Origin: an uncultured Acidobacteriota bacterium
GTDB lineage: Bacteria; Acidobacteriota; Polarisedimenticolia; J045
DNA: 64,000 bases
NCBI GenBank assembly: GCA_963800865.1
Contig: CAWDCL010000004.1
Span: 791,013-855,012 of the forward strand
Direction: 5' to 3'
Positions 1 through 46,520 of the stretch are shown piece by piece. The notes under the pieces were generated by a model that did no database searches, was not told where the DNA came from, and saw only the letters and a list, made by a program, of their open reading frames with translations. The first letter of the stretch is position 1. Each line of letters starts with the position of its first letter. A program made the position numbers and the translations under genes.

Positions 1-200
1 GGCCAACCCCGCCGGGTCGTGCGGATGTCAGGCCAACCCCGCCGGGTCGTGCGGATGTCAGGCCGGCCCCGCCGGGTCGTGCGGATGTCAGGCCGGCCCC
101 GCCGGGTCGTGCGGATGTCAGGCCAACCCCGCCGGGTCGTGCGGATGTCAGGCCGGCCCCGCCGGGTCGTGCGGATGTCAGGCCGACCCCGCCGGGTGCG
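1..200. repeat. 30-bp tandem direct repeat, about 6.6 copies, running off the window start. Two unit variants (A = GGCCAACCCC..., B = GGCCGGCCCC...) occur in the order A-A-B-B-A-B, then a truncated copy.
   Basis: Exact reiteration of GGCC[AA/GG]CCCCGCCGGGTCGTGCGGATGTCA starting at 1, 31, 61, 91, 121, 151 and 181. There are no unique spacers, so this is not CRISPR. It sits immediately 3' of the minus-strand tsaC-like gene. Confidence 0.9.
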
Positions 201-206
201 GGGCTG

Positions 207-21325: not shown

Positions 21326-21676
21326 GTGGCCGCCCGCCGCCGCTACCGCGTCTACGTGATCGAACTGCTGAACGACGACGGCTGGCAGGGCGACCCGTCG
21401 ATCCCCTGGGTCTACGTCGGCCACACCGCCAAGCGGCTGGAGGAGCGCTGGCGCGAGCACGCCGAAGGGGTTCGCGGCAAGTCGACGAAGTGGACCGACG
21501 GCCGCTGCGGCCCGCTGCTCGCGGAACTGTACGGGACGATCGAGGCCGTGGCGACGCGCGCGGAGGCGCTGGAGCTGGAGCGCGCGCTGTCGATCCGGCT
21601 GCACGAGACCGGTTACGGCGTCCACGGCGATGGGCTGCCGCGCGGGCTGCGGCGCCGGAGCGGCCGCAGCCCGTAG
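21326..21676 (+). CDS. GIY-YIG nuclease-domain protein (small, YhbQ-like)
   Basis: YRVYVIEL...VYVGHTAKRLEERWREH fits GIY-(10-11)-YIG...R...H/E. Confidence 0.6.
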   Translation: MAARRRYRVYVIELLNDDGWQGDPSIPWVYVGHTAKRLEERWREHAEGVRGKSTKWTDGRCGPLLAELYGTIEAVATRAEALELERALSIRLHETGYGVHGDGLPRGLRRRSGRSP

Positions 21677-21800
21677 GGGCCGGGCTCCGTCCCGGCCCGC
21701 ACGTCGACTCCGCGTTTCGGGCCGGCACAGAGGCCGGCCCCTACGCTGCTGCGACGGCAACCGTTGCCCGTGTCCCGACCCAGGCCACAGCGGGCGGCCC
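21677..21800. repeat. GC-rich palindromic REP-like intergenic element cluster (two inverted copies)
   Basis: GTAGGGGCCGGGCTCCGTCCCGGCCCG and, in inverse orientation, GGGCCGGCACAGAGGCCGGCCCCTAC plus GGCAACCGTTGCC. The same modules recur at 46354-46520 and 56110-56176. Confidence 0.7.
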
Positions 21801-24251
21801 CTACCGCCCGTAGTGCCCGAGCAGCCCCTCGCCCTTGACCCCGACCGCCGACACCAGCCAGCAGGTCAGCGAGCCGGGCGCCGACGCCGAGCGGTCCGTG
21901 AAGGCGGTGTCGGACGCGCTGACATCCTCGCCGGTGACGTCGACGAAGCTGCCGGAGGCTTGCGGGTCGCTGCCGCGGTACACCGTGTAGGTCAGCGCCG
22001 AGCCGACCGGCCACCAGGTCAGCGCCGTCGCACCGCCGGCCTGGCGCGACAGGTCGCGCAGCAGGACCTCCGGGAGCGGGGTCTCCCAGGGGCGCGTCTT
22101 CAGCTCCAGCCGCCAGGACTGCAGCGAGCCCACGTTGCCGGCCGCCGCGTCCTGCACCTCGAGCGTCCAGGTCCCGAGCGACGACCGGCCGCGCAGCACG
22201 TCGAGGCTGTCGACCGGCGCGGTCAGCGTGTCGTAGGTCGTGTCGATGTTGTCGGCCGAGCCGCCCTGGCGGCTGTGCAGCCGCACCCGCGTCCCGTCGG
22301 GCGCGACGAGCGTCACGCGCAGGTCGGCGATGTAGGGGTGCGTGATCTGCACCCGCACGTCGACCTCCTCCAGCTCCTCGTCGAGCGTCACGCCGATGGC
22401 CGAGGTCGTCTTCCCGGGGTTGGGGATCGCCTTCGGGGTGTCGGTGGCATCGCGCTGCGTCAGCAGCGGCGCGCCGAGCGGGACGAAGAAGGCGTCGGTC
22501 GTGCCGGAGGCGCCCTGCGCCGTCGTCCAGTCGACCGCGAAGGCCAGCTTGTGCCCGGCCGGCGCGTTCGGCGCGACGGAGAGGCCGAAGTGCGGCGCGA
22601 CCGTCTCGGCCGACGCGCCGGTCCCGAGATCGGGCCACAGGGCGCCAGTCTGCGGCTGGCCGTAAACGGTCAGCGGCCGCAGCGTCCCGGAGATCCCGGT
22701 CGCCGCGCCGCCGGCGTTGCGCACCGTCACCGCGAGCTGTCCCGCCTCGCCGGGCGCGAACCAGCCGTCCGCGTTCGTCTCCTGCGCGGCGCGGCTGGCG
22801 GTCACGGCCAGCCCGGTCGGGTTCGGCGAGAGGGTCACGTCCAGCCGCGTCGCGTCGCCGCGCGAGCTGGCCACCGTGAACGGGACGACGCGGGTCTGGT
22901 ACCCGTCGGCGCTGACCTCCAGCTGGTACGAGCCGGCCTTCAGCACGCGCTGGTAGTCGCCCACCGGCAGGTCCGTGAAGAACGGGTGCTGGCGGCCGTC
23001 GACGCGCAGCGTCGCGGCGAGCGGCGCGCCGGTCGTGACGTCGGTGACGCGCCCCCGCACGCCGGTCAGCGCGCGCTCCATAGAGGAGAGCATCGACTCG
23101 CGGTTGTCGTTCCAGTAGCCGTCGAGGGTGCTGGCGGCCGGCGTCTTGGGGCCGCTCAGCTCGACCGTCAGGTCGAGGTCGCCCTGCCAGACCATGTTCC
23201 AGTCCTGCATCCCGCCGTAGATGACGTACCAGTCCGCGCCGTTGGTGATCCCCTGCGAGAACGAGCCGCTGCCGTGCATCGGCGCGTTGTCCTCGGCGTA
23301 GTCGAGCGCGATGTCGACCAGGACGTCGTCGTCGGGGGCCACCGAGTAGTTGGGAAGCCCGTTGGTGTTGCCGTCGTAGGGGTAGTTCGTCACGACCGCC
23401 CCGCCGTGGAAGTTCCCCGACAGGCTGGTCTGGTGTGCGAACTGCCAGTTCATCATCAGCCCGGTTTCCTTCGCGCGCCCGGCGGTCGTGTTGACCGGAT
23501 CGTTCCAGATGTCCGGGAAGTCGCGGTTGAGGTCGACGCCGGCCGCGTTGTAGCGCTGGGCCAGCACGTTCCCGTCGGGGTTCATCGAGACCATGATCCA
23601 GATCTCGAGGTTGTCGACGAGCCGCTGGACGCGCGTGTCGGTCGCGTAGCGGTCGGTCAGCCAGTCGATCAGCCGCAGCAGGTTCTCCGCCCCGACCTTC
23701 TCGTCGCCGTGCATGTTGCCGACGTACTTGAAAGCGGGCTCGTCCTCTTCGACGTCGGGGTTGTCGGTGATCTTCAGCCACCACAGCTCGCGCCCCTGCA
23801 CGCTCTTGCCGGCCGAGCTGAGGCGCGTGATCGCCGGGTGATCGTTCGCGACCTGCTGCAGCTGCGTGGTCCAGGAGCTGTAGTCGTGGTAGGTGGCCTC
23901 GGGGGCCAGCGGCCCGTCCTGCTGCTGCTGCCGGGCGAGGAACTCCGCCAGGCCGGGGTCGGGGAGCTCGGTCCAGGAGAGGCCCAGTGCCTCGAGCTTC
24001 TCCATCTCCTCGGCGGTGACGTAGGCGATCACCTCGCGCTGCTCGTCACGCTCGACGTCGAAGCCGGCGTTGAGCAGCTCGGCGAACTCGACCGGGCCGG
24101 CGCCCAGGATCCGCACGATCCGGTACTCGGCGCGGCCGAGGGGGCCGATCGGGCGCGGCGCGGGGCCGGCGGCGAGGAGGACGGGGAGAGAGGCCGCCAC
24201 GAGGAGGGCGGCGAGCGGGCGGATCCGGCCGAGGCCGGGCAAACGCGGCAT
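21801..24251 (-). CDS. Secreted M14 zinc carboxypeptidase with a C-terminal proprotein-convertase P-domain
   Basis: Signal peptide. KYVGNMHGDEKVG is the M14 zinc-binding HxxE signature. PYIADLRVTLVAPDGTRVRLHS...GNVGSLQSWRLEL is a P/Homo-B domain. Confidence 0.85.
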   Translation of the reverse strand: MPRLPGLGRIRPLAALLVAASLPVLLAAGPAPRPIGPLGRAEYRIVRILGAGPVEFAELLNAGFDVERDEQREVIAYVTAEEMEKLEALGLSWTELPDPGLAEFLARQQQQDGPLAPEATYHDYSSWTTQLQQVANDHPAITRLSSAGKSVQGRELWWLKITDNPDVEEDEPAFKYVGNMHGDEKVGAENLLRLIDWLTDRYATDTRVQRLVDNLEIWIMVSMNPDGNVLAQRYNAAGVDLNRDFPDIWNDPVNTTAGRAKETGLMMNWQFAHQTSLSGNFHGGAVVTNYPYDGNTNGLPNYSVAPDDDVLVDIALDYAEDNAPMHGSGSFSQGITNGADWYVIYGGMQDWNMVWQGDLDLTVELSGPKTPAASTLDGYWNDNRESMLSSMERALTGVRGRVTDVTTGAPLAATLRVDGRQHPFFTDLPVGDYQRVLKAGSYQLEVSADGYQTRVVPFTVASSRGDATRLDVTLSPNPTGLAVTASRAAQETNADGWFAPGEAGQLAVTVRNAGGAATGISGTLRPLTVYGQPQTGALWPDLGTGASAETVAPHFGLSVAPNAPAGHKLAFAVDWTTAQGASGTTDAFFVPLGAPLLTQRDATDTPKAIPNPGKTTSAIGVTLDEELEEVDVRVQITHPYIADLRVTLVAPDGTRVRLHSRQGGSADNIDTTYDTLTAPVDSLDVLRGRSSLGTWTLEVQDAAAGNVGSLQSWRLELKTRPWETPLPEVLLRDLSRQAGGATALTWWPVGSALTYTVYRGSDPQASGSFVDVTGEDVSASDTAFTDRSASAPGSLTCWLVSAVGVKGEGLLGHYGR

Positions 24252-44461: not shown

Positions 44462-44578
44462 GCATATAAGCATACAGTCAAAGCAGCGATATGCCACACC
44501 TGGCTTCTAACCCCCGGAACCCGCCCCCGCCGCCGCCCGCGTTGACAGCACCTGCCCCCGGGGGCACAGTCCCGCCCC

Positions 44579-45496
44579 GTGTTCGCCGACCTCGAATCGC
44601 CCGGCCGGCCGGCCGCCCCGCCGGTCCGGCTGAAGGACCGCCTGGCCGATCCGCGCCCGCTGGTCGCGGTCGAGCTGCGCCCGCCGCGGCGCGACCTCGA
44701 GGGGGTCGGCGCGATGGAGGCCTGGATCGACGCCTACCACGCGGTCCAGAGCCTGTCGGCGACCGACACCGTCGTCTTCCTGACCGACAACGCGATCGGC
44801 AGCAGCGAGGAGGAGAACCTCGGCCACCTCGTGCGCAACCTCGGCCCCGCGGCGCGGCGCGAGCGGATCGTCCCGTTCCTGACGCTCAAGCACCCGCTGG
44901 ACTACTGCCGCCGCTACGCCGGCCGCGCGCGCCGCGAGCGCTTCCCCGGGCTGGTCGTGCTGGGAGGCGACACGCACGACGCGATCCCGCGCTGCCTGCC
45001 GCACAGCTGGCAGCTGCGCGAGGCGCTGCGCGCGGAGCAGCCGGGGCTGCTGCTGGGCGGCTGGGTCAACCCGTACCGCGATCCCGCCGAGCAGGTCTCG
45101 CTGCTGCTCGATCACGGCGCGGGGCTGGACTTCCTGCTGACGCAGATCGTCTCGCACCACGACCTGGCGCCGGTCGCCGCCTTCGCCGAGGAGGCCGCGC
45201 GGCGCGGGCTGGCGCTGCCGACCTTCGCGGGCGTCTTCTTCTACCGCAGCGCGCGCCGGCAGACGCTCGACGCGCTGGCGCAGTTCATCCCGGTCCCGGC
45301 CGCCGGCTTGTCGGCCGACTTCCTGGAGCGGAAGATGTCGGCCGAGGAGGTCGCGGCGGCGACGCTGTCGGCGCTGGCCGGCCTCGGCTTCACGCGCTTC
45401 TACATCTCGAACCTCGAGACGGGGCGGGCGCCCGCACGGCGGACGTCGATCGCGCGCCGCGCCGGGCTCTCCGCACCCGAAAGGACACCCCGATGA
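44579..45496 (+). CDS. Methylenetetrahydrofolate reductase family protein (MetF-like)
   Basis: VAVELRPP...VVFLTDNAIGS...FYISNLE is colinear with MetF VSFEFFPP...FHFYTLNRAE. It lies near metH. The start is a GTG. Confidence 0.5.
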   Translation: MFADLESPGRPAAPPVRLKDRLADPRPLVAVELRPPRRDLEGVGAMEAWIDAYHAVQSLSATDTVVFLTDNAIGSSEEENLGHLVRNLGPAARRERIVPFLTLKHPLDYCRRYAGRARRERFPGLVVLGGDTHDAIPRCLPHSWQLREALRAEQPGLLLGGWVNPYRDPAEQVSLLLDHGAGLDFLLTQIVSHHDLAPVAAFAEEAARRGLALPTFAGVFFYRSARRQTLDALAQFIPVPAAGLSADFLERKMSAEEVAAATLSALAGLGFTRFYISNLETGRAPARRTSIARRAGLSAPERTPR

Positions 45497-46353
45497 GTGC
45501 CACCACCTACGACGTGACCACCGCCGGATTCGAGAAGGACGTGATCGAGAGGTCCGACGAGGCCGTCGTCGTGATCGACTTCTGGGCCCCCTGGTGCGGG
45601 CCGTGCAAGACGCTCGGCCCGATCCTGGAAGACGAGATCGGCAAGCTCGACGGCCGGGCCGTGCTGGCCAAGGTGAATGTCGACGAGAACCCCGAGCTGG
45701 CGCAGGCCTTCCAGGCCCAGTCGATCCCGATGGTCGTCGCGATCCACAAGCGGCGGCCGGTCTCGTCGTTCCTCGGCGCGCAGCCGCGCGACGTCGTCGA
45801 GCAGTGGCTGAAGCAGGTCGTGCCGAGCGCGGCCGAGACCAGCCTGGAGTCGGCGAAGAAGCTGCTGGCCGAGCACGAGTACGCGCAGGCCGAGACGGTG
45901 CTGCGCAAGGTCCTCGCCGCCAACCCGAACGACCAGACCGCGCTGCTCGAGCTGGCGCGCGTGCTGGCGCGGCGCGGGGAGCGGGCCGAGGCGCTGGTGC
46001 TGCTCGACCGGATCCCCGCCGGGACCCCGGAGTACGACGCCGCCGAGCGCGAGCGGTTGATGTTTGCGATGTTCGACGCCGGGGAGCAGGCGGGGGACCT
46101 CGCGGCGGCCAAGGCGAAGGTCGCCGCGAACCCCGCGGACAGCGCGGCGCGCTTCGCGCTGGCCGGGGCGCACTGGCTGGAGGGGGAGATCGAGCCGGCG
46201 CTCGCGGAGTTGCTGACGATCGTGCGCAAGGACCGCGCCTTCTGGGACGATGGGGCGCGCAAGGCGCTGCTGGCGTTGTTCGACTACCTCGGCGAGGGGA
46301 TCCCGGCGGTCGACACCGCGCGCTCGGAGCTGGCGAACATCCTCTTTTCGTAG
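45493..46353 (+). CDS. Thioredoxin-domain protein with a C-terminal TPR-like domain (YbbN/CnoX-type chaperedoxin)
   Basis: VVIDFWAPWCGPCKTLGPIL is the WCGPC active site, followed by helical TPR-like repeats. The start overlaps the previous stop (ATGA). Confidence 0.75.
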   Translation: MSATTYDVTTAGFEKDVIERSDEAVVVIDFWAPWCGPCKTLGPILEDEIGKLDGRAVLAKVNVDENPELAQAFQAQSIPMVVAIHKRRPVSSFLGAQPRDVVEQWLKQVVPSAAETSLESAKKLLAEHEYAQAETVLRKVLAANPNDQTALLELARVLARRGERAEALVLLDRIPAGTPEYDAAERERLMFAMFDAGEQAGDLAAAKAKVAANPADSAARFALAGAHWLEGEIEPALAELLTIVRKDRAFWDDGARKALLALFDYLGEGIPAVDTARSELANILFS

Positions 46354-46520
46354 GCGGGGCCGGCCCGAACGGGGCGAACGGTTCCTTAGGGCCGGCCTCC
46401 GTGCCGGCCCGAAGGGCAGCGCAACGGTTCCTGTAGGGGCCGGCCTCCGTGCCGGCCCGAAAGGGCAGCGCAACGGTTCCTGTAGGGGCCGGCCTCCGTG
46501 CCGGCCCGAAAGGGCAGCGT
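46354..46520. repeat. REP-like tandem array: three copies of a ~50-bp unit, GGGCCGGCCTCCGTGCCGGCCCGAAAGGGCAGCGCAACGGTTCCTGTAG, plus a degenerate leader copy
   Basis: The perfect 8-bp stem palindrome GGGCCGGC/GCCGGCCC with a ctccgt loop is repeated. This is the same family as the elements at 21677-21800. Confidence 0.85.

Follow-up and report, generated by a model that had tools for sequence, protein, structure and literature searches.

How did a nearly perfect 30-bp tandem array come to lie beside a YciO/TsaC-family gene of an uncultured Acidobacteriota bacterium, and does it do anything there? The array opens the 64,000-nucleotide stretch of DNA analysed here (hereafter the window), whose edge cuts it at coordinate 1. 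A sequence-only reading of the window had offered three options for it: a minisatellite, a protein-binding array, or the 3′ end of an upstream repeat-containing gene.

Results

A 30-bp tandem array in the 3′ flank of a YciO-like gene

Tandem Repeats Finder (TRF) reports an array of period 30 at positions 1-197 of the window, with 6.6 copies, 95% matches, 0 indels and a score of 352, by far the strongest tandem array in the 64 kb. Searching the whole window for GGCCRRCCCCGCCGGGTCGTGCGGATGTCA with up to 3 mismatches returned six matches, starting at 1, 31, 61, 91, 121 and 151, all at 0 mismatches (0.00 expected from 100 shuffles), and no further copy of the unit appears in the window even when 3 mismatches are allowed. 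The ~6.6 near-perfect copies counted by the sequence-only reading are borne out by both the TRF copy number and the six exact matches. The unit reads GGCC-(AA/GG)-CCCCGCCGGGTCGTGCGGATGTCA on the plus strand and TGACATCCGCACGACCCGGCGGGG-(TT/CC)-GGCC on the minus strand, and the units follow one another head-to-tail, without intervening unique sequence.

The six full units differ at positions 5-6 only, which read AA, AA, GG, GG, AA and GG (A A B B A B), exactly the variation and the succession described earlier. We find no ground for the accompanying claim that this pattern is ordered, three A and three B units in six positions offering no testable higher-order period. A seventh copy, with GA at positions 5-6 and a 2-bp deletion, fades into the flank; note that GA is one transition away from AA and one from GG. 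The GC content is 70-78% throughout the window.

The array lies in the 3′ flank of the YciO-like gene, as first read from the letters: the TAG stop, at 209-207 on the minus strand, is 9 nt from the end of the TRF array. The gene encodes a single-domain Sua5/YciO/YrdC protein (PF01300, Sua5_yciO_yrdC), and members of its protein cluster that are 4-9 aa away, from Acidobacteriota MAGs, bear the NCBI name L-threonylcarbamoyladenylate synthase, both of which agree with the initial tsaC-like identification. Its 209-aa product is on record exactly; the product of the longer YciO ORF has no record. The features discussed here are collected in Table 1.

Table 1. Features of the array region and of the REP-like hairpins in the window
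Feature	Position	Strand	Basis
Six full 30-bp units, cut by the window edge	1..180	none	TRF score 352 and six exact matches
Decayed seventh copy and proximal flank	181..206 (end ~206)	none	GGCCGACCCCGCCGGGT--GCGGGGCTG, from sequence
YciO/TsaC-family gene, L-threonylcarbamoyladenylate synthase-like, 209 aa	207..836	-	exact product on record, PF01300
Inverted pair of REP-like hairpins GTAGGGGCCGGCCTCCGTGCCGGCCCGAA, GTAG ends outward, ~14 bp apart	21673..21743	none	sequence search
Head-to-tail 49-bp x3.4 array, one full GTAG REP-like hairpin plus flank per unit	46359..46519	+	TRF score 273

The array is non-coding

Five of the six reading frames are open through the array, the exception being a minus-strand frame that meets a TGA in each unit. 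The three plus-strand frames run on to first stops at nt 535, 659 and >900, and any plus-strand frame across the array would overlap the YciO gene in antisense by at least 326 nt. On the minus strand, the frame beyond the YciO stop is open as well (DIRTTRRGRP); the position of this stop is conserved in all relatives compared. Open frames are expected from the composition, quoted at 73-74% GC for this purpose.

A joined query of the five open-frame translations found no protein match at E≤0.01 among 5.8 billion proteins. In a local phmmer control at the same database size, a target with two in-frame units would give E=1e-4. Because the proteins of the source genome are part of the searched collection and the control has this sensitivity, none of the genes called in that genome extends over two units or more. 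In the relatives, the orthologue of the upstream gene, a GlcD-like FAD oxidase, ends in ...GTLL* without any repeat. The array is thus non-coding. The proposal that it forms the 3′ end of an upstream repeat-containing gene is left without support by the stops deep in the YciO antisense, by the repeat-free end of the GlcD-like protein and by the lack of a protein match, and the doubt already voiced over a decapeptide translation was well placed, there being no plausible ORF and no homologue for any open frame.

RNA structure, known repeat classes and searches for other copies

Folding of the whole array as RNA gave energies no better than those of dinucleotide shuffles (z -0.44 on the minus strand and +0.77 on the plus strand), and the same holds for single units on both strands (z -1.5 to +0.8). 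We considered that the AA and GG variants might preserve a minus-strand hairpin via G-U pairs and rejected it, the folds being in disagreement (the better fold is that of the minus strand for A and that of the plus strand for B). An Rfam search of the array with E up to 10 returned sub-threshold miRNA-type noise and no family, and a scan for promoter and terminator consensus sequences found neither a sigma-70-like promoter nor a T-tract terminator.

Two classes of direct repeats were set aside. A CRISPR array, which the sequence-only reading had also dismissed, would need unique spacers between the repeats; here the units abut directly, with zero spacers, and no cas genes are present in the neighbourhood. 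An array of iterons or partition sites was rejected as well, as no replication initiator or partition gene is found in the window flank or in syntenic relatives: the neighbours on the visible side are an MBL-fold hydrolase, Nth, an epimerase and OMPs, and those on the other side, in the syntenic relatives, are the GlcD-like oxidase, ComFB and PMT glycosyltransferases.

The junction 21-mer GGGTCGTGCGGATGTCAGGCC had 0 exact matches in 185,579 species-representative genomes and 0 in JGI metagenome contigs. The periodic pattern GCGGATGTCA-N20-GCGGATGTCA, which leaves 20 of the 30 positions free, was found at 28 loci in the two collections, all unrelated (mostly period-15 coding repeats) and at a Hamming distance of at least 9/20 from the middle part of the unit. 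No second contig carrying the 30-bp unit was found in the genome and metagenome collections searched.

The window contains GTAG-tagged REP-like hairpins

Elsewhere in the window, a hairpin GTAGGGGCCGGCCTCCGTGCCGGCCCGAA recurs, which starts with GTAG and folds into a perfect stem of 8 bp with a loop of 6 nt (-19.8 kcal/mol, z -2.64). The features of this hairpin family match those of the published GTAG-tagged REPs (Di Nocera et al. 2013, PMC3733652). That survey does not list Acidobacteria among the carrier phyla (PMC3733652).

The hairpin occurs in two arrangements (Table 1). The inverted pair is intergenic and adjoins the minus-strand ORF 21801..24251. The head-to-tail array is a second minisatellite, each unit of which consists of the GTAGGGGCCGGCCTCCGTGCCGGCCCGAA hairpin and ~20 bp of flank; it sits between the plus-strand ORF 44491..46353 and an ATG at ~46522, and the TAG stop of this ORF is the TAG of a degenerate GTAG element.

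Close to the 30-bp array, the only GTAG lies in the proximal flank, where it belongs to the GCG-TAG stop and precedes a different hairpin. Positions 181-206 read GTAG-CA-GCCCCGC-ACCCG-GCGGGGT on the minus strand, with a 7-bp hairpin at 186-204 directly after the stop codon (-16.4 kcal/mol, z -0.53, no better than shuffles). Over 186-212 of the same strand, the GTAG formed by the YciO stop thus stands directly before the 7-bp GC hairpin (GCCCCGC-ACCCG-GCGGGGT). Relatives of the L003 type also show GTAG and then a GCCCC...GGGGC hairpin at the equivalent position after the YciO stop. Possibly, the GTAG and GC hairpin after the YciO stop represent a degenerate REP that belongs to a different sequence type; they may also be coincidental.

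The spacer is hypervariable among close relatives

We retrieved 20 contigs (L001-L010, L039-L049) whose YciO proteins are identical to that of the window or differ by at most 5 aa, GTG start-codon translation being counted apart. The spacer between YciO and the next gene is visible in 19 of them, L002 ending at the stop codon. The gene order is kept on both sides, with OmpW, an OMP beta-barrel, epimerase_2, Nth, the MBL-fold hydrolase and YciO, then the convergent GlcD-like FAD oxidase, ComFB and PMT glycosyltransferases, and the visible side of the window has the same order. From this conserved synteny, the gene just outside the window would be the GlcD-like FAD oxidase.

The flanking genes of the relatives are 95-99% identical to the window where measured, and the YciO-GlcD spacer measures 10, 27, 34, 37, 40 or 140 bp, against at least 197 bp in the window. 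In L001, L039 and L040, which encode an identical YciO protein in gene DNA 99.0-99.4% identical to that of the window, the spacer is 10 bp long and repeat-free; the match between L001 and the window ends at the second base of the stop codon, beyond which the two sequences diverge completely. The array is therefore absent from near-identical strains. Other relatives, ~95% identical where measured (L003, L007), have spacers of 27-40 bp with the same gene order on both sides. None of the 10-40-bp spacers carries a repeat; the 140-bp spacers of L041 and L049 carry a tandem repeat. The proximal flank of the window has no significant similarity to the short spacers of L001, L003, L004, L007 and L008.

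The 40-bp spacers of L003-L006 and L010 (6631-6670 in L003) are made of one arm of the REP hairpin. In the 34-, 37-, 40- and 140-bp types, the end CTAC, the reverse complement of GTAG, overlaps the GlcD-like stop codon. Overall, the YciO-GlcD spacer is hypervariable, with a rapid turnover, and hosts GTAG-tagged REP hairpins in this group.

The contig without a visible spacer deserves a separate remark. L002 (1-1046, Logan ERR10755939) has a single difference from the window over 627 nt, and its end falls exactly on the TA of the YciO stop, the point where the array-bearing and array-less alleles part. Such an end would fit an assembly graph that was broken, in this sample, by the two alleles or by the repeat as such.

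The 30-bp unit aligns with a REP junction in a relative

The 140-bp spacers of L041 (866-1005) and L049 (666-805) are made up of a 20-bp tandem repeat, in 2.5 copies, and then a pair of GTAG-tagged REP hairpins. In L041, whose gene is 95% identical to that of the window, the repeat is GCACGGCCTGCCTGACGGAC x2.5 and the hairpins are an inverted pair of GTAGGGGCCGGCCTCCGTGCCGGCCCGAA, the same organisation as that of the pair at 21673-21743. The spacer of L049, which comes from a different sample, is built likewise and differs by four substitutions, and the copy number of the 20-bp unit, 2.5 in both, does not vary between these two.

The minus strand of the window array aligns with the L041 spacer without gaps, with 31/39 matches and a score of 38 (window GGCCGGCCTGACATCCGCACGACCCGGCGGGGCCGGCCT; L041 GGCCTGCCTGACGGACGCACGGCCTGTAGGGGCCGGCCT), and the alignment spans the junction between the last 20-mer and the hairpin. 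Dinucleotide shuffles of the L041 spacer scored 19.4 +/- 3.5, with 0/500 reaching 38, and 1816 real 140-nt segments of the window, used as a control, reached a maximum of 33 as compared to 38 for the L041 spacer. The proximal flanks of the window and of the L041/L049 spacers also align. Because the ungapped alignment runs across this junction, the 30-bp unit is the homologue of ~20 bp of REP-flanking DNA plus the REP 5′ stem arm GGGGCCGGCC, an arm that the B variant of the unit includes. On either side of the matching 30 bp, L041 has GGCCTGCCT and GGCCGGCCT, which form an imperfect direct repeat of 9 bp (GGCCKGCCT) with its copies exactly 30 bp apart.

No GTAG stands next to the stem in the 30-bp unit, the window having CGGC in the alignment where L041 has GTAG. 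We also considered the unit to be a REP itself and rejected it: the GTAG, the loop and the second arm are all missing, the fold is not significant, and the 64 kb hold no dispersed copies.

Discussion

We consider it likely that the array is a non-coding, lineage-specific minisatellite, located in the spacer of two convergent genes and derived by slippage from REP-flanking DNA. The minisatellite option of the sequence-only reading fits in that the units are contiguous and of the 10-100-bp class, the array does not code, and the spacer length is polymorphic among close strains. For the DNA beyond coordinate 1, we predict a finite number of further 30-bp units, followed by one REP hairpin or a pair (GTAGGGGCCGGCC...) and, after it, by the GlcD-like stop, on the plus strand.

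Because the 9-bp direct repeat of L041 sits exactly one 30-bp period apart, we propose that slipped-strand mispairing or unequal recombination between such 9-bp microhomologies would have produced the first 30-bp duplication, and that further slippage would have amplified the unit. In the simplest history, a GA ancestor would have given rise to AA and GG by two single mutations, later duplications interspersing the variants. Interspersed variants are also found in eukaryotic minisatellites. In the L041 lineage, the same ancestral sequence expanded with a period of 20 bp.

Transcripts of one or both convergent genes probably include the array in their 3′ untranslated part. Strains with a 99% identical flanking gene do without it, which argues for a dispensable array, and most likely it has no sequence-specific function of its own; we infer that it is neutral. 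Any function would be limited to effects on transcript 3′ ends.

A functional cis-element, either tandem protein-binding sites or a 3′-UTR/terminator module tuning the expression of the YciO-like and GlcD-like genes, seems unlikely to us. Six near-perfect copies do imply recent homogenisation or constraint, the array is placed where relatives have a GC-rich REP hairpin that is a plausible two-way terminator, and REPs have been proposed to act in termination and mRNA stability (PMC3733652). However, an element of this kind is hard to reconcile with its absence from the 99% identical strains; moreover, the unit keeps one REP stem arm only, its folds do not go beyond shuffles, the array has no T-tract terminators and no Rfam family, and no gene for a regulator, for replication or for partition lies in the flanks, be it in the window or in the syntenic relatives, nothing having come to light in support of the protein-binding array suggested earlier. 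A coding repeat, whether as a decapeptide-repeat C terminus of the upstream gene, as a small ORF of its own or as an extension of YciO by read-through, could draw on a period that is a multiple of 3 and on the open frames, including that after the YciO TAG, but we hold it to be very improbable in view of plus-strand stops that come only inside the YciO antisense, GlcD-like proteins that end without repeats, 0 matches among the proteins searched with a control sensitive down to two units, a YciO stop common to all relatives, and frames that the composition would leave open anyway.

The array could also be in part an artefact, a real short repeat mis-resolved during assembly in its copy number, its variant order or its contig end. 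It stands at the very edge of the window, near-identical tandem units are hard to assemble, and L002, from an independent sample, breaks where the alleles diverge. This reading is nevertheless improbable: the source contig of 3.27 Mb (3,269,294 bp) points to long reads, which could cross 200 bp, interspersed variants with a decayed terminal copy are what real minisatellites typically show, unlike repeats that were collapsed or inflated, a homologous tandem repeat is present at the locus in two independent assemblies (L041, L049), and the break of L002 is equally explained by two alleles coexisting in the sample. More speculative, and in our view doubtful, is a REP-driven birth of the satellite, in which a half-REP and its flank would be under active amplification, possibly via a RAYT transposase or REP-induced replication stalling, and the hypervariable 3′-UTR block would alter termination or mRNA stability of the YciO-like and GlcD-like transcripts, leading to expression differences between strains.

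The minisatellite that we favour resembles the GTAG REP clusters and BIME-like arrays reiterated with their flank (Di Nocera et al. 2013, PMC3733652) in being extragenic, GC-rich and placed just past stop codons, in its homology to the DNA abutting a relative's GTAG REP, with the REP 5′ stem arm included, and in a presence that varies strongly between strains; the same genome has both a head-to-tail REP array (46359-46519) and an outward pair (21673-21743). Unlike these clusters, the 30-bp unit has neither the GTAG tag nor the loop nor the 3′ stem arm, is not a palindrome and has no significant fold, nor is it dispersed, being present at one locus in 64 kb and without a match in the public collections searched. 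With the bacterial intergenic minisatellites and VNTR loci (mycobacterial MIRU; Burkholderia and Xanthomonas MLVA markers), it shares head-to-tail units of tens of bp and high identity, interspersed variants, an intergenic position, presence or absence between close strains and a presumed origin by slippage or unequal recombination. MIRUs, in contrast, form a dispersed family at many loci, mostly inside operons, whereas the present array is a single locus between convergent genes; VNTR loci differ in that our 30-bp unit is known from one contig and copy-number polymorphism of the unit is not seen. With CRISPR it has in common ~30-bp direct repeats and a partial dyad symmetry in a GC-rich unit, but not the spacers or the nearby cas genes. 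Several direct repeats at a regular period also recall iterons and parC/parS arrays, from which it departs by its conserved chromosomal housekeeping neighbourhood, without rep or par genes nearby, and by being dispensable in near-identical strains.

The array is an ordinary feature, one more example of short tandem arrays arising in bacterial intergenic DNA. It is a traceable case, in which a relative keeps a state near that before expansion, 30 bp bracketed by a 9-bp microhomology beside a REP hairpin, and a sister lineage expanded another period (20 bp) from the same sequence. The accompanying family of GTAG-tagged REPs would extend such elements to Acidobacteriota and may be of minor interest for cataloguing REP/RAYT systems outside Proteobacteria. 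Within this uncultured Acidobacteriota population, the locus itself could be used to tell strains apart.
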